A DNA stretch of 64,000 nucleotides from assembly GCA_049521895.1 (NCBI GenBank), contig JBEKOJ010000001.1, positions 482,717-546,716 of the forward strand, in the 5' to 3' direction. Under the pieces are notes generated by a model. It was not told the DNA's origin and did no database searches. It saw only the letters and a program-made list of their open reading frames with translations. Both the position numbers and the translations under genes were made by a program. The stretch is from Candidatus Saccharimonadales bacterium. Its GTDB lineage: Bacteria > Patescibacteriota > Saccharimonadia > Saccharimonadales > UBA10212. Positions 4,488 to 56,395 of the stretch are shown here, piece after piece (the first letter of the stretch is position 1; the number at the start of each line of letters is the position of its first letter).

Positions 4488-6347
4488 TCAGTCCCGTTTG
4501 AGCATTATAGCGAAAGCTTCGGCAGGGATGTCTACCCTACCAAAGCGTTTTAGTCGTTCTTTACCTCTCTTTTGTTTAGCCAGTACTTTCTTTTTGCGGC
4601 TAACATCCCCGCCATACAAGCCGCTGGTGACGTCTTTACGGTAAGCGCTTATATCTTCACGGGCAATAAACTTGCCGCCGATGGCCGCCTGTACGCTGAC
4701 TTTGAAATTCTGTCTTGGGATTACTGTTTTTAACTTGGCGACGGCGTTTTTGGCGACCCGCTCGGCCTCATCGCGGTGGATTATGACACTAAGCGCATCA
4801 ACCTTATCGCTGGCAATATAAAAATCCAGGCGCACCAAGTTTCCGGGCCGGTAATCGGTCAGTTCATAGTTAAACGAGCCATAGCCGCTAGTAATACTTT
4901 TGAGCTGGTCATAAAAATCTGTCAGCAAGTTAGCCAGTGGCGCTTCAAAATCTATAACCGCCAGCTCGTCCACATAGCTAATGTGTTTTTGCAAACCGCG
5001 AGCGTTGATTATTAGTTGCAGTACCGCGCCAACGTACTGGTTGGGCGCAACTATCTCGCCCCTAACCCAGGGCTCTCTGATCTCTGCCAGTTCGCTGGCA
5101 CCAGGTAGCTCGGCCGCTGATTTTATATCCTCCTCCTGACCGCCGGTCATCCTGATTTTATAATCAGTCGATGGGTTGGTGATTATCAAATCCAGAGAGT
5201 ATTCCCGCTCCAACCGCTCACGCACGATATCCATATGCAACAGCCCCAAAAAACCAATGCGCACGCCAAATCCTAGTACCGGCGAATTTTCCAGGACAAA
5301 CTGCAAAGCCGAATCGCTTAACGATAGTTTTTCGATAGCGTCTTTTAGTATTTGGTAATTTTCATTACTGTCCGGGAAAAAACCAGCATAAACAAACGGC
5401 TGGACATTTTTATACCCGGGCAACGGCTTGTCAGTTGGCGAATTGGCAAGAGTTACCGTATCGCCGACTTTAGCCTCACGTGTACTTTTGAGATTAGTGA
5501 CAACGTAGCCAATTTCGCCGGCTGCCAACTGGCCGGTTGGCCTCATTTCGGGATTCAGGCTGCCAATTTCTAGCGCTAAGCCCTCCGCGCCAGTCGCCAC
5601 CATCCTAATCGAATCATTTTTATTAAGTAGTCCGTCTACCACCCGCAAATACAGAATTACACCACGATAGTCATCGTAGTAACTGTCAAAAATCAGTGCC
5701 CTGGTCTTAGCGTCGGGCTGGCCGCTTGGTGGGGGCACAACTTCTACAATCTTATCCAGCAGCTCTCTAACGCCTTCACCGGTCTTGGCGGAAACCAGCA
5801 AGATATCCTCTTTTTTGCAGCCCAGCAGACCAATAATCTCGGCGCTGACTTTTGCTACATCAGCCGCCGGCAGGTCAATTTTATTCAGGACCGGGATAAT
5901 AATTAGGTTGGCTGCCAGCGATAGATAGACATTAGCTAGTGTTTGCGCCTGGATGCCTTGCGTGGCGTCAACCACCAAAATAGCACCCTCTACAGCAGCC
6001 AAACTGCGGCTGACCTCGTAGCTAAAGTCCACATGGCCCGGCGTATCAATCAAGTTGAGCTCGTACTCAATTTGATAGGAACTGGGAACATGAAACTGGG
6101 AACTAGTTTTTTCTTGTTCCTTGTTGCCTGTTCCTTGTTTCTGCTCGCTCCTATAGCGCATCCTTACAGGAGCGAGCTTAATAGTAATGCCCCGCTCACG
6201 CTCCAAATCCATCTTGTCCAGCAGTTGGGCTTTCATATCACGTTTCTCGACTGTGCCAGTTAATTCCAGCAAACGGTCCGCCAGCGTCGATTTACCATGA
6301 TCAATATGGGCCGTAATACAAAAATTCCTGATGTGCTCCTGATTCAT
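4488..6347 (-). CDS. lepA: Elongation factor 4 (LepA)
   Basis: IRNFCITAHIDHGKSTLADRLL, DTPGHVDFSYEVSRSL, NKIDLPAA, and the LepA C-terminal region GKERLKRFGRVDIPAEAF. Confidence 0.95.
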   Translation of the reverse strand: MNQEHIRNFCITAHIDHGKSTLADRLLELTGTVEKRDMKAQLLDKMDLERERGITIKLAPVRMRYRSEQKQGTGNKEQEKTSSQFHVPSSYQIEYELNLIDTPGHVDFSYEVSRSLAAVEGAILVVDATQGIQAQTLANVYLSLAANLIIIPVLNKIDLPAADVAKVSAEIIGLLGCKKEDILLVSAKTGEGVRELLDKIVEVVPPPSGQPDAKTRALIFDSYYDDYRGVILYLRVVDGLLNKNDSIRMVATGAEGLALEIGSLNPEMRPTGQLAAGEIGYVVTNLKSTREAKVGDTVTLANSPTDKPLPGYKNVQPFVYAGFFPDSNENYQILKDAIEKLSLSDSALQFVLENSPVLGFGVRIGFLGLLHMDIVRERLEREYSLDLIITNPSTDYKIRMTGGQEEDIKSAAELPGASELAEIREPWVRGEIVAPNQYVGAVLQLIINARGLQKHISYVDELAVIDFEAPLANLLTDFYDQLKSITSGYGSFNYELTDYRPGNLVRLDFYIASDKVDALSVIIHRDEAERVAKNAVAKLKTVIPRQNFKVSVQAAIGGKFIAREDISAYRKDVTSGLYGGDVSRKKKVLAKQKRGKERLKRFGRVDIPAEAFAIMLKRD

Positions 6348-10052: not shown

Positions 10053-10131
10053 TGTTTTATGTTGACACGTCTAGCTACTGCCGTCAAAACGCACCCTGTA
10101 CGCTCTACGCTAAACGCTGTACGCTATATTT

Positions 10132-30009: not shown

Positions 30010-30330
30010 GGAGGCTAAAATACGGTTTTGTCCTGTCTTGCTCGAGACATTTATTTAAAGTCTGCTGTATCGGACTCAGCCTCCGCTATCGCGGAGGTTT
30101 TAACACTTATCATTTTTCATTTGGCATTTATCTCTCTTTGGTCATCTATCATTGCAGCTGCAATCTGGTAAATGTTACCTGGTAAATAAATGTAAATTGT
30201 TAAATGTAAAATGCTAAATCGCTCGCCTTTGGCGGGCGCTTTACCGTTGCGGCACAGTGTTGGCATCTCACCAACTTCCAGCAATCGTTTGTTAATGTTC
30301 CATCATGATAGACCGCCGGCCGCAGGCCGT
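30010..30330 (-). ncRNA. Candidate cobalamin riboswitch / long structured 5' leader
   Basis: The minus strand at 30279..30240 reads GGAAGTTGGTGAGATGCCAACACTGTGCCGCAACGGTAAA. This parallels the conserved cobalamin-riboswitch core GGAA-stem-GUG.GA-stem-CUG..CGCA.CGGUAA. I did not identify a clear B12 box. Confidence 0.45.
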
Positions 30331-52842: not shown

Positions 52843-54288
52843 ATGAAATCTAACGGATCTCTACTATACGGCCTATGTTTAATGGTGGGAGATTTTGTAG
52901 CACTGGTGGCGGCTTTTAGCGGCGGCTATATTTTGCGTGTTTCTATAGACCATCGGCCTATAGCCTACTCAGTCCATGCTTCCACCTATTTAGAAATTTT
53001 TTTGTTGCTTTTGCCATTTTGGATCCTATTATTCGCCTTGCTTGGGCTGTATAGCAGTTCCATATACGAAAAACGCTTTACCGAGGCTAGCCGGCTATTC
53101 ATCGGTTCATTTATCGGTTTACTGTCGGTCACCAGTTTAGCTTATTTTGAGCGCCGGGCGATTTTCCCGGCCCACCTGGTACCGGTCTACGCCTTCATCC
53201 TAGCGTTTATATTTTTGTTGATATTTCGTAATTCCGCCCGGGCTATTCGGGTCAAGCTTTTTGACTACGGCATTGGTATTACAAATATATTAATTGTCGG
53301 TAACACCAGAATCGCCCGCGAGCTTGTGGAGTCTTTGGCAAATTACCGGGTTTCCGGCTACCGTATCGTTGGTGTAGTTGGAGCCAAAGAACACACTACC
53401 CGCAACTACCCGCACCTGGCGGTTTTTAAAACTTTTCAGGATGCCGTCGCCAAACTCAAAGTAGATGATATCCATAGCATCGTGCAGACTGAGCTTTATG
53501 CCTCCGGAGAAAGCAACAACGAGATCCTGGAGTTTGCCCAGGCTAACCATATTGCCTACCGCTTCATCCCCGGAAACTCCGAACTGTTTGTCGGCAATAT
53601 TGAAGTTGAGCTGTTCCGCTCCTCGGTTCCGGTCATTGCCGTACATCAAACCGCGTTAATTGGCTGGGGGCGTATTGTTAAACGCCTCACCGACTTGATT
53701 TTGGGCGGACTGATTTTTATCATCACCAGCCCATTTATGCTGCTGATAGCCATAGCTATTAAGCTCTTTGATTTCCGCGGGCCGGTTTTACATAAAGATA
53801 TACGCTTCACGCGCTTTGGCGGCACCATCCAAGTTTATAAGTTCCGCAGCATGAAGCAAACTTATAGCGGCCTGACTCCGGAGGAGGCCTTTACCAAAAT
53901 GGGCAAGCCGGAACTTACAAAACCCTACCGCGAGAACGGGGACTTCTTATTAAATGACCCTCGCATCAGCCGCATTGGACGTTTTTTGCGCCGCACCAGC
54001 CTGGATGAACTGCCCCAGTTCATAAATATTGTTAAAGGGGATATCAGTTTAGTTGGGCCCCGCGCCCTGCAAACCGCAGAGTTGGAAAAACACGCCAATA
54101 AAGATTTAATTTTGTCCGTAAAATCTGGCCTCACCGGTTTAGCCCAGATATCTGGGCGCAAAGAAATCAGCTTTGAAGAACGCCGCAAACTTGATTTGTA
54201 CTACGTACAAAATTGGAGTTTTTGGATGGATATGATGATCATCATCAAAACCATAAGGGTGGTATTCAGTCGCGCTGGGGCCCGCTAG
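52843..54288 (+). CDS. Polyprenyl-phosphate glycosylphosphotransferase (WbaP/EPS priming sugar transferase)
   Basis: KRLTDLILGGLIFIITSPFMLLIAIAIK...YKFRSM...DELPQFINIVKGDISLVGPRA. Confidence 0.9.
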   Translation: MKSNGSLLYGLCLMVGDFVALVAAFSGGYILRVSIDHRPIAYSVHASTYLEIFLLLLPFWILLFALLGLYSSSIYEKRFTEASRLFIGSFIGLLSVTSLAYFERRAIFPAHLVPVYAFILAFIFLLIFRNSARAIRVKLFDYGIGITNILIVGNTRIARELVESLANYRVSGYRIVGVVGAKEHTTRNYPHLAVFKTFQDAVAKLKVDDIHSIVQTELYASGESNNEILEFAQANHIAYRFIPGNSELFVGNIEVELFRSSVPVIAVHQTALIGWGRIVKRLTDLILGGLIFIITSPFMLLIAIAIKLFDFRGPVLHKDIRFTRFGGTIQVYKFRSMKQTYSGLTPEEAFTKMGKPELTKPYRENGDFLLNDPRISRIGRFLRRTSLDELPQFINIVKGDISLVGPRALQTAELEKHANKDLILSVKSGLTGLAQISGRKEISFEERRKLDLYYVQNWSFWMDMMIIIKTIRVVFSRAGAR

Positions 54289-54324
54289 TAGATGGCGGAT
54301 AGTAGGTAGTAGATGGTAGATAGA
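54286..54324. repeat. GTAG-rich word array forming the left flank of the four-helix-bundle cassette
   Basis: TAGTAGATGG occurs at 54286-54295 and 54307-54316, followed by GTAGATAG. Confidence 0.7.
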
Positions 54325-54684
54325 ATAAAATCTTTCGAACAGTTAATAGTTTGGCAAAAGGCCCAAGAACTTGCGGTTTCAATGTATGAGATTACCAAGA
54401 GGTTCCCAGCGAACGAAAAGTTTGCTCTTACAAACCAAGTTCGCAGAGCCGCCAATTCGGTTTCAGCTAATATTGCGGAGGGCTTTGGCCGTCGATCCCC
54501 TAAAGATAAAGTACAATTTTATACGATTGCGTATGGTTCATTACTCGAGGTGAAAAACTATCTGTATCTAGCTGAAAAACTAGGATACATTAACAATGTT
54601 GATAGAGGGAATGCTAATAACACTGTACTTGATGTACAAAAATTAATTAATGCTCTTATTAAATCCATAACTAAAAATGCCTAA
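54313..54684 (+). CDS. Four-helix-bundle protein (23S rRNA intervening-sequence protein family)
   Basis: IKSFEQLIVWQKAQELAVSMYEITKRFPANEKFALTNQVRRAANSVSANIAEGFGR...YGSLLEV. Confidence 0.85.
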   Translation: MVDRIKSFEQLIVWQKAQELAVSMYEITKRFPANEKFALTNQVRRAANSVSANIAEGFGRRSPKDKVQFYTIAYGSLLEVKNYLYLAEKLGYINNVDRGNANNTVLDVQKLINALIKSITKNA

Positions 54685-55930
54685 CTCCCGAACTACGAAC
54701 TACGAACTACGAACTACAACAGCAAGGCCACGCGTGGCTTTGGTGCATGATTGGTTAATAGGCGGCGGCGCCGAGCGGGTGGTTGAGCAACTGCACAAAA
54801 TGTATCCGGAGGCGCCGATCTACACGTCTTGCTGTTCAAACGAGTGGCGCCAGAAATTGGATGGCAAGGTTGTTACCGGTTATCTGCAGCATTGGCCGTT
54901 CTCGCAACTGCGTAAGTTTTTACCGCCGCTGCGCGGCCTATGGTTCTCGCGCCTCAAACTAGACGGTTACGATTTAGTCATCAGCAGCTCGGGTGCCGAA
55001 GCCAAATTCATCAAAACTCGTAGATCGCATATAGAAGATAGTAGATCGGGCAAAACAAAGAGAATATTGTTTAGGAAAACGGCCAAACTCCTACCTACGA
55101 CCTACGACCTACGATCTGCGAAAGCGGTGCACATCTCGTACATCCACGCGCCAACGCATTACTATTGGAGCCGCTACGACGATTACATGCGCCACCCGGG
55201 TTTTGGCAAATTGGACCCGCTGGCCAGACTTGGACTTAAGGTCTTTGTCAGGCCAATGCGCCGCTGGGATTTCCGCGCTGCCCAGCGTCCTGATTATCTA
55301 ATCGCCAACTCAACTTACACCAAAGAGCAAATAGAAAAATATTACGGCCGCGATGCTGTTGTGATCCACCCGCCAGTTGAGACCAAGCGTTTCAAAATAC
55401 TTAACAAGTCAAGTATTTTACGACACGGTTTTGTCATAGCTGGCCGGCAGACTCCATATAAGCGCATGGATCTTGCTGTGCGCGCTTGTAGCCGGCTTAA
55501 ATTACCGCTGCTGGTTTTGGGTGACGGGCCGGAGCACCGTAAATTAAAAAAGCTAGCAGGACGCAGCATTACGTTTATTAAAAATCCATCCGACGAACAG
55601 GTTGCGGACTATTTCAAATCTTCCCTAGCCTTTATTTTCCCGGGGCTTGATGATTTTGGAGTTGTGGCTGTAGAGGCCATGGCCGCTGGTACGCCAGTAA
55701 TTGCCTACGAAGCCGGTGGTGCTTTGGACTATGTCGAACCGGGTAAAACCGGCTTGTTTTTTGAACCCCAAACTGTTGAGGCTTTGGAGAAAGCCCTGCA
55801 AAAATTCAAGCCTGCTAATTTTAATAATTCAGATATTCAAAAAGCTGCGGGCAAATTTTCAGGCACGGTTTTTGCGAATAACTTTCAAAAATATATTAGC
55901 CAAGTCTTTAAGAACCAGCCTTCTGCTTAG
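54677..55930 (+). CDS. Glycosyltransferase family 4 (GT-B)
   Basis: VALVHDWLIGGGAERV...GRQTPYKRMDLAV...EDFGVVAVEAMAAGTPVIAYEAGG. The start is uncertain: ATG 54677 lies in the repeat, and GTG 54734 gives the canonical VALVHDW N-terminus. Confidence 0.85.
   Translation: MPNSRTTNYELRTTTARPRVALVHDWLIGGGAERVVEQLHKMYPEAPIYTSCCSNEWRQKLDGKVVTGYLQHWPFSQLRKFLPPLRGLWFSRLKLDGYDLVISSSGAEAKFIKTRRSHIEDSRSGKTKRILFRKTAKLLPTTYDLRSAKAVHISYIHAPTHYYWSRYDDYMRHPGFGKLDPLARLGLKVFVRPMRRWDFRAAQRPDYLIANSTYTKEQIEKYYGRDAVVIHPPVETKRFKILNKSSILRHGFVIAGRQTPYKRMDLAVRACSRLKLPLLVLGDGPEHRKLKKLAGRSITFIKNPSDEQVADYFKSSLAFIFPGLDDFGVVAVEAMAAGTPVIAYEAGGALDYVEPGKTGLFFEPQTVEALEKALQKFKPANFNNSDIQKAAGKFSGTVFANNFQKYISQVFKNQPSA
54689..54716. 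repeat. Heptamer tandem repeat (CGAACTA)x4 forming the right flank of the cassette
   Basis: Four exact tandem copies. The reverse complement (TAGTTCG)x4 mirrors the GTAG-rich left flank. Confidence 0.85.
55019..55126. repeat. Miniature GTAG/CTAC word-array element inserted in frame in the GT4 CDS
   Basis: GTAGATCG x2 (55020-55027, 55041-55048), an about 45-nt spacer, then (CCTACGA)x3 (55094-55114). It is translated as RRSHIEDSRSGKTKRILFRKTAKLLPTTYDLRSAKA. Confidence 0.6.
55396..55417. repeat. 22-bp palindrome family copy inside the GT4 CDS (AATACTTAAC-AA-GTCAAGTATT)
   Basis: Encodes ILNKSSI and has one arm mismatch. Confidence 0.7.
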
Positions 55931-56395
55931 CTTAGCCCGAGCTTCTTCATAAGACGCCAAATCCTGTTCCAATTTCTCAAGAAGTCCAACTATTTTTTCC
56001 TCGCTATACCCAGGTAAGACGGGCTTGAATTGTTGCCTGGAAAGATAGTCGTACCGCTCGATTACCTGGGGAATCTTAAGGCCTCCTTCACCCAAGAACC
56101 ATTTAGCCATGATGCTTGGCTCATAGTTGGTCGTAGATTCTTTCGGTCGTGGTTTATAAATAAAAAATTGTAGCGACAGGGCTTGGCCATCCTGTTCGGC
56201 CACCGCCAAAGGTTCTGTCTGAAAATTTACATCGCCGATTGCGTCTGGCATTGGGTCAGCATAGGCTCCGATACGTTCAAGTAAGCCATCAAATCTTACC
56301 AGATACTGTTCGTGCCCCGCTGGTATAGATTCGGCTCTTCCAGAGGGGTTGTTAACATCATAAAAATGATCACCTTCGCGGTTGCGTAAACTCAT
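55859..56395 (-). CDS. Hypothetical protein (178 aa)
   Basis: ORF only. Its 3' end overlaps the convergent GT4 gene by 72 nt. Confidence 0.45.

Follow-up and report, generated by a model that had tools for sequence, protein, structure and literature searches.

A probable gene-less copy of an intervening-sequence-type hairpin element within a GT4 glycosyltransferase gene of a Saccharimonadales bacterium

The stretch analysed here, hereafter the window, is 64,000 nucleotides of a contig from a Candidatus Saccharimonadales bacterium. In it, the gene for a GT4 glycosyltransferase contains, in frame, a 103-base hairpin-shaped repeat at 55020-55122, which we call the mini element. A gene for a four-helix-bundle (4HB) protein, bracketed by two arrays of heptamers, lies upstream; the distance from this full-size element, the cassette, to the mini element is 330 bp. 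The features of the locus are as follows.

54288..54322, + strand: left arm of the cassette, heptamers GTAGATG GCGGATA GTAGGTA GTAGATG GTAGATA
54313..54684, + strand: four-helix-bundle protein gene (23S_rRNA_IVP / TIGR02436, distantly Avd-like), from profile matches
54689..54719, + strand: right arm of the cassette, (CGAACTA)x4 then CAA
54734..55930, + strand: GT4 (GT-B fold) glycosyltransferase, likely start GTG at 54734
55018..55121, + strand: outer stem of the mini element, 10 bp, from RNA fold and duplex computation
55020..55047, + strand: left arm of the mini element, four heptamers GTAGATC GCATATA GAAGATA GTAGATC
55048..55090, + strand: spacer of the mini element, 43 nt
55091..55122, + strand: right arm of the mini element, CTAC CTACGAC CTACGAC CTACGAT CTGCGAA, four to five CTAC-type heptamers

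The GT4 product matches Glycos_transf_1 (Pfam, 1.7e-25) and is encoded in a polysaccharide locus, with a Bac_transf sugar transferase gene as its neighbour. Its AlphaFold model (mean pLDDT 89.1, pTM 0.86) has the GT-B fold and is matched by Foldseek to MshA, PimA and BshA at E about 1e-16. A longer version of the ORF, from an ATG at 54677, passes through the cassette's right arm. The mini element contains no stop codon inside this ORF (54677..55930), as a previous sequence-only reading of the locus had stated; in the GT4 frame its left arm is translated as R-S-H-I-E-D-S-R-S and its right arm as P-T-T-Y-D-L-R-S-A. From ISSSGAEAK to HAPTHY, 105 of 121 GT4 sequences have 29 residues, compared to 61 in the window, a net gain of 32 residues (96 nt). 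The segment is thus an insertion that lengthens the enzyme, as had been claimed, at a size slightly below the 34-36 residues first given. In the model the insert sits between strands E82-86 and E133-138, where the pLDDT drops to 47-50, so that the structural check proposed with the earlier reading places it in a low-confidence, predicted surface loop between two core strands. The window GT4 retains all columns that are invariant in an alignment of 57 sequences. A protein of 398 aa (P0001) is 99% identical to it, and the P0001 cluster, whose 10 members come from 4 contigs, is full length. An independent assembly (L094), the one other strain compared, has the same allele with the element unchanged.

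The inverted GTAG and CTAC arrays described in the earlier reading are present, with a spacer of 43 nt rather than the approximately 45 nt estimated there. In the left part of the mini element, GTAGATCG is found twice (55020-55027 and 55041-55048), and in the right part Tandem Repeats Finder (TRF) reports a period of 7 at 55093-55114, with 3.1 copies and 100% matches. The outer stem pairs TCGTAGATCG (55018-55027) with CGATCTGCGA (55112-55121). As an RNA hairpin, the mini element is weak and its inner stem has decayed: the fold of the whole segment is no better than those of shuffles (z -0.66), and the arm-arm duplex, at -23.3 kcal/mol (z -2.2), has a value that is reached by 7 of 200 shuffles. 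Neither a target-site duplication nor a defined junction flanks the mini element. The sole flanking direct repeat, 55012-55026 with 55130-55144 (80%), includes the conserved host codons for HISYIH.

In the cassette, the 4HB gene constitutes the loop, and it is the sole ORF. Its product matches PF05635 (1e-35) and, more distantly, bAvd (9.8e-06) in Pfam, as well as TIGR02436 (3.2e-34), and is no known transposase. The 4HB start codon (54313) falls in the fourth heptamer of the left arm, and the GT4 start codon lies 15 nt beyond the end of the right arm, for which TRF gives a period of 7, 4.1 copies and 100% matches. The duplex of the two arms is predicted at -30.3 kcal/mol, and with longer flanks its z is -2.5. 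A scan of 54100-55300 detected no promoter-like or terminator-like sites between the genes, and among the 28 window ORFs scanned with Pfam (64 kb of genome) no transposase, Y1/RAYT included, was found.

The mini element resembles the ends of this cassette on both sides. Its left end (55017-55046) is 80% identical to the left end of the cassette (54285-54314) and its right end (55076-55125) is 72% identical to the right end (54674-54723), with order and orientation in agreement. In Smith-Waterman searches of both strands of the window, the left half scores highest against the left end of the cassette (30, next 22), and the right half against the right end (40, with 28 as the next score outside the cassette). 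The pattern CTACGANCTACGA, with at most one mismatch, has 6 matches in the window where 0.14 are expected, a number reached by 0 of 100 shuffles, and all six are confined to the right arm of the cassette (54693-54719) or of the mini element (55095-55121). Furthermore, the mini right arm is 79% complementary to the cassette left arm at 54295-54323, with a duplex of -39.1 kcal/mol (z -3.0). The proposal that the segment is a miniature, ORF-less version of the cassette, placed in frame in GT4 and measurably similar to the cassette flanks, is borne out by these comparisons. The final ~15 nt of the spacer (AAAACGGCCAAACTC) also resemble the final codons of the 4HB gene (AAAAATGCCTAACTC), such that the 4HB stop TAA might correspond to an AAA (Lys) in the GT4 frame; coming from visual inspection of some 15 nt, this is only suggestive.

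Inserts at the same site of GT4 were found in about 12 scattered orthologue lineages, several made of the same or of other heptamer words. The sequence-only reading had named homologous segments of like length in orthologues as a point against an insertion. This point applies in part: a homologous insert of equal length occurs in one distant orthologue (P0008), and about 11 further lineages have other inserts there. Since the insert-bearing GT4s are interspersed among insert-free relatives, the distribution points to repeated occupancy of a hot spot and not to an ancestral segment. The GT4 gene of L001 has an insert at the same site as the window, with an equally long spacer; the two inserts are homologous and of the same length, with 38% amino-acid identity, so that old inheritance followed by losses could account for at least part of the distribution. 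The GT4 genes of L001 and L002 show the layout again: four heptamers, spacer and four heptamers, the second left unit being degenerate. L003 and L085 have inserts made up of a single word type in direct repeats without an inverted partner, for which slippage-driven growth of an array would be a fitting explanation too. The GT4 insert and the adjacent cassette share one word family in the window, in L001 and in L085. That cassette and mini element moved together between the lineages of the window and of L001 is not supported, the insert-free L087 being nearer to the window in every gene segment.

Elements of the same design are also found in other genes and at other loci. For example, an unrelated Trm11-like methyltransferase gene (L092) has an in-frame GTAG/CTAC element with four-heptamer arms and, again, a degenerate second left unit. 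Three methyltransferase genes with ~93% identical DNA have GTAG/CTAC arrays, AGAAT/ATTCC arrays or no array at one site, and the GT4 genes of L085 and L086 are about 98% identical yet different at the insert site. Near-identical genes that differ at one loop are thus available in two sets, L085/L086 and L092/L095/L096. Two further elements lie in the window itself:

6078..6139, - strand: lepA element, a 4+4 heptamer hairpin of different words, in frame, from TRF and translation
30108..30218, + strand: intergenic ORF-less hairpin of CATTT-type and AAATG-type heptamers

The LepA hairpin contributes 22 residues (positions 69-94), and solved LepA structures align with residues 1-68 and 95 onward only; its arm duplex has a z of -4.3. 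The RNA fold of the intergenic hairpin is -35.5 kcal/mol (z -4.33). An inverted-array detector found 2 clusters in the window and 0 in 20 shuffles, counts that are lower bounds, as strict periodic-array detection overlooked both the degenerate mini left arm and the LepA arrays. Scanning metagenome contigs with a strict pattern yielded 6 loci, two of them (L088 and L089) apparently chance matches; the approximately four true copies that remain imply either a low copy number or a very diverse family. A synthetic 42-aa probe for in-frame copies drew no candidate with shared words from the protein database, a result that does not speak to their absence.

Arrays bracket 4HB genes in general. Among 79 4HB loci from many phyla, 60 have an array of period 6-8 on at least one side, and reverse-complementary words occur on both sides in 19 of the 79, compared to 0 of 572 control positions. 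Pairing of the arms was assessed by per-locus shuffles and by this word-based count with positional controls, a cross-locus control being confounded by G+C content and shared words.

We propose that the segment at 55020-55122 is probably a gene-less, decaying copy of a hairpin element of the intervening-sequence (IVS) type, translated as a tolerated loop. Its full-size form, the cassette, is a 4HB (23S_rRNA_IVP/S23p) gene flanked on the left by some four to five heptamers of the GTAG type and on the right by about four of the CTAC type, which is the design of a classical ORF-bearing 23S rRNA IVS, located outside rRNA. The mini element may have been derived from an ORF-bearing copy through internal deletion, and could have arrived either by a local hop from the neighbouring cassette or by recombinational import. 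With no target-site duplication or junction and no transposase in the window, it is only from the distribution of the elements that mobility can be deduced. In GT4, the copy lies in the short connection of two core beta strands in the N-terminal Rossmann domain and would be transcribed and translated with the enzyme, presumably without harm, as about 32 basic, probably disordered surface residues. It would survive because the loop tolerates added length and because its orientation gives a stop-free frame: the left arm owes its open frame to a second unit without TAG, and the CTAC heptamers are open in all frames. In the opposite orientation, every frame of the element would contain a TAG. In other Saccharibacteria this loop has been taken by arrays of this type more than once, and their presence and absence would be shuffled through homologous recombination of alleles.

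An alternative without any mobile element is that heptamer tracts grow by replication slippage in a permissive loop, the likeness to the cassette flanks being due to convergence on easily expanded words or to local gene conversion. The direct repeats of one word type in L003 and L085 are what slippage would give, Coxiella strains vary in heptamer copy number (PMC4990558), and heptamers are reported to be an abundant class of bacterial repeats (PMC4679880). However, slippage does not yield two arms of mutually complementary words on either side of a unique 43-nt spacer. Nor does it account for the same layout, degenerate second unit included, in an unrelated methyltransferase, or for the similarity to the cassette, which runs ~15 nt past the array over the 3'-terminal part of the 4HB ORF. 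For these reasons we consider it unlikely. Simple-repeat switches are well established in glycosyltransferase genes of Haemophilus, Neisseria and Campylobacter, and the three perfect tandem heptamers within this gene, in a polysaccharide locus beside the Bac_transf gene, could in theory operate in the same way. The gain or loss of one unit in (CCTACGA)x3 would shift the frame, 7 not being a multiple of 3, and turn a surface-polysaccharide glycosyltransferase off or on. The tract is short, though, at three copies; the repeat number is the same in L094, the one related strain compared, the P0001 cluster is full length, and elements of the same kind reside in lepA and a tRNA methyltransferase gene, where switching is implausible, all of which makes a contingency (phase-variation) switch quite improbable.

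We give equally little credence to an action at the RNA level, in which the arms pair in the mRNA and RNase III cuts the message, or the message is otherwise regulated, such that GT4 expression is lowered or split. The IVS design, whose stem is an RNase III substrate (PMC4990558), would be in keeping with this, as would the 10-bp outer stem, an arm duplex somewhat more stable than those of shuffles (z -2.2), and the intergenic and LepA copies that fold far better than chance (z about -4.3). Against it, the fold of the whole mini segment does not surpass those of shuffles (z -0.66), its inner stem has decayed, cleavage without religation would ruin a gene that otherwise appears fully conserved, and translating ribosomes would be expected to melt so weak a stem. 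No Rfam family, intron or terminator signal was detected; a known RNA family or intron was rejected as a candidate, with no Rfam match at E up to 1 in 54000-56000 and a fold that does not surpass those of shuffles. The least probable explanation, and a very unlikely one, is incipient decay of a gene whose enzyme was disabled by the insertion and whose ORF is open only by chance. By our arithmetic, a random 108-nt insert would be in frame and stop-free in ~6% of cases, so the open frame alone proves little, and the insert is located in the N-terminal, acceptor-binding domain. Nevertheless, all invariant columns of the 57-sequence alignment are intact, the model is confident outside the loop, independent lineages retain in-frame inserts at the same site, and the allele is common to separate assemblies. 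Thus, of the three outcomes envisaged in the sequence-only reading, the tolerated loop insertion fits best, in view of the low-confidence loop, the retained invariant residues and the shared allele. Removal at the RNA level, given the weak hairpin and the lack of an Rfam match, and the onset of gene decay, given the conserved residues and the allele in an independent assembly, find no support.

The IVSs of Salmonella are ~100 nt long and ORF-less. Among rRNA IVSs, long ORF-bearing forms (Coxiella and Leptospira, with S23p) and short ORF-less forms (Salmonella and others) both exist, and the mini copy corresponds to the latter. The cassette loop encodes the same protein family (PF05635), and the terminal inverted arms of tandem heptamers overlap the ORF start, as in Coxiella (PMC4990558), where the heptamer GACAGAT stands three times before the S23p start and an IVS with a 28-bp terminal stem is excised by RNase III (PMC4990558). 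In contrast to rRNA IVSs, the mini copy is in the GT4 coding sequence instead of a 23S or 16S rRNA helix (54000-56000 has no Rfam match), and would have to be read through, not excised; the cassette is between two protein genes; and the arms pair at only 4-6 of each 7 positions.

Peptides encoded by Rickettsia palindromic elements (RPE) are located in surface loops. Like the mini element, RPEs are inserted in frame at structurally permissive sites; they are short palindromic repeats in conserved genes whose products are thought to be functional (PMC3733652), and both occur in small genomes of host-dependent bacteria. The elements described here differ in that the arms are tandem heptamer arrays with a word that changes from copy to copy, in the existence of an ORF-bearing relative that encodes a 4HB protein, and in their lineage, Saccharibacteria. 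Given the heptamer-array build, membership of the mini element in an RPE consensus family is unlikely. The GTAG-tagged REP/REPIN-RAYT systems have an outer GTAG and inverted pairs able to form long hairpins, and some intragenic REP copies encode 20-30 residues (PMC3733652). However, a REP is a single GTAG tag with a palindrome of 20-40 nt, whereas here GTAG recurs every 7 nt, the arms are not self-complementary, and other copies use wholly different words. A REP/RAYT element, suggested by the GTAG word, was rejected on this misfit of arm structure and on finding no Y1 transposase among the 28 window ORFs. An MITE, as a short non-coding derivative, would likewise share both ends with a longer ORF-bearing element, and here the likeness continues into the 3' end of the ORF; unlike an MITE, the mini element has no target-site duplication, and its longer relative, the cassette, encodes no known transposase. 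An intron or intein was also dismissed: Rfam gave no match at E up to 1, and 32-36 residues are far below the size of an intein.

The heptamer arrays (STRR, TAACTGA) of Cyanobacteria, Beggiatoaceae and Bacteroidetes consist of two to six tandem 7-nt units, often end just before a start codon and have an unexplained patchy distribution across phyla (PMC4679880); the cassette right arm similarly ends 15 nt before the GT4 start. They were described there as direct repeats without a partner array, as opposed to the inverted pairs around a 4HB ORF or spacer seen here, and the text of PMC4679880 as searched makes no link of heptamer arrays to 4HB genes. A more speculative view, which we offer tentatively and hold to be less probable than not, is that array hairpin and 4HB (S23p/IVP, Avd-like) gene form one widespread, unrecognised mobile or self-maintaining class, in which a pentameric 4HB protein might recognise the four to five words of each arm. 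The rRNA IVSs, the heptamer arrays of Cyanobacteria, Bacteroidetes and Beggiatoaceae and the loop inserts of Saccharibacteria might then be its products, and the GT4 mini element a non-autonomous form.

Rickettsia (RPE) and some REP families are the main known sources of selfish palindromic repeats within protein-coding genes. A comparable phenomenon is now seen in Saccharibacteria, which have very small genomes, and we met no earlier description of such repeats in this group in the literature searched. For the annotation of these genomes, the arrays are a source of spurious N-terminal extensions and odd peptides (TTNYELR, IVDSRS). The near-identical gene pair and triplet whose sole difference is the element at one loop (L085/L086 and L092/L095/L096) provide concrete material on the mechanism of insertion. 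Finally, the in-gene repeats are tied to a specific ORF-bearing relative, the 23S_rRNA_IVP cassette. This link bears on the origin and possible mobility of rRNA intervening sequences and on the role of the S23p/four-helix-bundle family, which is called functionally unknown in PMC4990558 and in a 2024 preprint on rRNA insertions in CPR bacteria.

The ORF-less heptamer-array hairpin that lies in frame in the GT4 glycosyltransferase gene (the mini element) is laid out in the same way as the cassette ~330 bp upstream, which consists of a four-helix-bundle (4HB) protein gene and its flanking heptamer arrays. The features compared here are as follows:

54288-54322, + strand: cassette left flank, GTAGATG GCGGATA GTAGGTA GTAGATG GTAGATA
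54313-54684, + strand: 4HB protein gene, 23S_rRNA_IVP / TIGR02436 (Pfam 1e-35, weak bAvd match)
54689-54716, + strand: cassette right flank, (CGAACTA)x4
55020-55047, + strand: mini element left arm, GTAGATC GCATATA GAAGATA GTAGATC
55048-55090, + strand: mini element spacer, 43 nt
55091-55122, + strand: mini element right arm, CTAC CTACGAC CTACGAC CTACGAT CTGCGAA

The 4HB start codon falls within the fourth unit of the left flank. The left part of the mini element is 80% identical to the left end of the cassette over 30 nt and the right part 72% identical to the right end over 50 nt, both in the same order and orientation. When each half was searched by Smith-Waterman against both strands of the whole 64-kb window, the top match was the corresponding cassette end (30 vs 22 for the runner-up on the left; 40 vs 28 outside the cassette on the right), which bears out the resemblance to the cassette flanks proposed in the sequence-only reading. 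Tandem Repeats Finder reports the mini right arm as period 7 with 3.1 copies and 100% matches, and CTACGANCTACGA, at no more than one mismatch, has six matches in the window where 0.14 would be expected, all of them within this arm or the array directly downstream of the 4HB gene (54693-54719). The right-side likeness does not stop at the array but reaches ~15 nt further, into the 3' end of the 4HB ORF, where the cassette has AAAAATGCCTAACTC and the mini element AAAACGGCCAAACTC; by inspection, the TAA stop of the cassette aligns with AAA in the GT4 frame. These few bases suggest that the mini element may be what an internal deletion left of an ORF-bearing copy.

We aligned the window GT4 with its 120 best database relatives, mostly from Candidatus Saccharibacteria or Saccharimonadales. 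The span from ISSSGAEAK to HAPTHY is exactly 29 residues in 105 of the 121 sequences and 61 in the window protein and the 99%-identical P0001, so that the segment is indeed an insertion relative to the orthologues, with a net gain of 32 residues over the majority length rather than the 34-36 originally estimated. As also claimed, it is free of stop codons, being open throughout within ORF 54677..55930. An AlphaFold model built from a 57-sequence alignment (mean pLDDT 89.1, pTM 0.86) falls to pLDDT 47-50 solely across residues ~93-132, between strands E82-86 and E133-138, in agreement with the earlier suggestion of a loop; on this model, the insert is an expansion of a GT4 surface loop.

The open frame has its basis in the units themselves. 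With four intact GTAG units, every one of the three frames would contain TAG (stops derived by hand); the degenerate second left unit, common to all hairpin copies and the cassette, lacks TAG and leaves a single frame open, in which all genic copies are read (..VDSRS..). CTAC units have no stop in any frame; in reverse orientation there is TAG in each.

The longest GT4 ORF begins at ATG 54677, still within the 4HB gene, and its extra 5' part (54677-54733) translates the cassette right arm as RTTNYELRTTT, whereas gene callers place the start of P0001 at GTG 54734. Arrays of this kind likely create false N-terminal extensions in annotations.

A 4HB protein scan with one genome per species gave 80 loci (L005-L084) from Saccharibacteria, other CPR phyla, Bacteroidota, Acidobacteriota, Gammaproteobacteria and others. 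These are flanked by inverted arrays whose units are 6-8 nt long (in some cases 14 nt), with a different word at almost every locus. Under a strict criterion (an exact 4-mer at least three times at period 6-8), 79 loci had an array upstream in 40 cases, downstream in 49 and on at least one side in 60, with reverse-complementary words on both sides in 19. The corresponding counts for 572 control positions were 15 upstream, 34 downstream and 0 with reverse-complementary words on both sides (at least one side was not counted). Many Saccharibacteria cassettes share one location, between a Bac_transf sugar transferase and GT4. The closest insert-free GT4 relative (L087) has no 4HB gene there; it has instead an ORF-less hairpin at ~2475-2565, of GAGAATA-type then AATTCCC-type units, annotated as an N-terminal extension of its GT4.

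The GT4 insertion site has been occupied repeatedly. About a dozen further lineages carry +7 to +56 residues there; they are scattered in the neighbour-joining tree, and every one has insert-free close relatives. Four such inserts, named by database locus, are:

L001: GTAGACA GGGACTA GTAGATA GTAGATG, 43-nt spacer, CAAACTA CAAACTA CAAACTG CAAGCTG
L002: four left and four right units without a spacer
L003: four CTAC-type units alone
L085: nine AATGG-type units

The first matches the window mini element in layout and length. In three of four cases the GT4 insert and the neighbouring cassette use one and the same word family, a hint of local copying. L085 and L086 are ~98% identical over the gene yet differ at the insertion site, and eight substitutions are crowded into the 20 nt right of the insert (L085 671-690). 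In the related strain L094 the window element is unchanged, and in the otherwise nearly identical gene 18 differences lie within the 55 nt immediately to its left (54940-54994). The substitution clusters in both pairs suggest recombination tracts ending at the element; such mosaics would show that filled and empty alleles have moved between strains by homologous recombination. Among the orthologues there is also a second hot spot in the interdomain region (alignment columns 295-340, after PVDxxRF; window about 55400-55420), where ~nine have CTAC-array peptides or other short inserts (LPTTNYQLQ, LPTNNYQLPQ) and the window GT4 has none.

Elements of this design are also found in other genes. When metagenome contigs were scanned for an exact pattern, one was found in L091 and L092 (GTAGATC GCAGATA GTAGATA GCAGATT, 38-nt spacer, CTAACTA CGAACTA CGAACTA), in frame in a Saccharibacteria Trm11/UPF0020-like methyltransferase, directly ahead of motif I (DPFCGTG). 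Among 120 orthologues, the loop before this motif ranges from 28 to 85 residues, and its inserts represent at least three word families. At this one site, three methyltransferase genes of ~93% DNA identity have a GTAG/CTAC element, an AGAAT/ATTCC element or no array (loop regions L092 1686-1850, L095 686-820 and L096 1080-1184). An insert type of ~55 residues with the motifs GVQGAGEQR..QSAK..GSAG.Q is common to the GT4 insertion site and this methyltransferase loop (GT4 P0011 and P0085; methyltransferase P0127, P0130, P0192 and P0232) and presumably represents a further element family. Two more hairpins lie in the window:

6078-6139: 4+4 heptamers, in frame in lepA (LepA/EF4; 4488..6347, minus strand)
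~30108-30218: intergenic ORF-less hairpin, CATTT-type and AAATG-type heptamers, between two minus-strand genes

The lepA hairpin has GGAACTG-type then CTTGTTC-type words on the plus strand (GAAC then GTTC on the coding strand) and an arm duplex z of -4.3. The alignment of solved LepA structures covers residues 1-68 and resumes at 95, so the hairpin adds 22 residues (69-94). The intergenic hairpin folds as RNA at -35.5 kcal/mol (z -4.33; 0 of 200 shuffles as good), and L003 and L086 use its word family in their 4HB cassettes. A (TACGCTA)x4.3 array at 10099-10128 stops 4 nt short of a Mur-ligase gene start (10132); no complementary partner array was found for it, and a solo arm is one possible reading.

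We propose that the mini element is transcribed along with the GT4 gene and that the ribosome would read it through as a basic, disordered loop of no benefit to the enzyme; it would persist because the site is permissive. Other explanations can be considered. All invariant columns of the family alignment are retained, and Foldseek matches the model to the GT-B GT4 enzymes MshA, PimA, BshA and HepE (E about 1e-16); together with the confident model, this makes the gene look intact, and we give little weight to gene decay. The mini copy is decayed as a hairpin (fold z -0.66, arm duplex z -2.2), which fits a coding context without selection for pairing, and control by RNase III is an improbable role for it. 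A phase-variation switch is similarly unlikely, and origin of the heptamers by slippage in place also ranks low.

Among known systems, the closest in construction is the Coxiella burnetii intervening sequence (IVS) in 23S rRNA, where an S23p ORF is preceded by tandem heptamers (GACAGAT) of strain-dependent number, with a 28-bp terminal stem and excision by RNase III; how the IVS arose and what S23p does are described as unknown (PMC4990558). The match in design indicates that the cassette is an element of IVS type located outside rRNA, with the GT4 segment as its ORF-less form. In its mode of action, the mini element resembles the Rickettsia palindromic element, a palindromic repeat that lies in frame within conserved genes (PMC3733652). 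It differs from REP/RAYT elements in arm structure and from MITEs in that no target-site duplication was found around it and no transposase in the window. An intron or intein identity was rejected. A published account of heptamer direct repeats in Cyanobacteria, Beggiatoaceae and Bacteroidetes leaves them unexplained, and text searches of it turned up no link to 4HB genes (PMC4679880). In the literature searched, whose coverage was incomplete, we came across neither array-flanked 4HB cassettes outside rRNA nor their in-frame miniatures, which is therefore absence of evidence only. The main interest of these elements is that they tie IVS-type cassettes to in-frame loop inserts, and the nearly identical filled and empty alleles render the mechanism of insertion testable.
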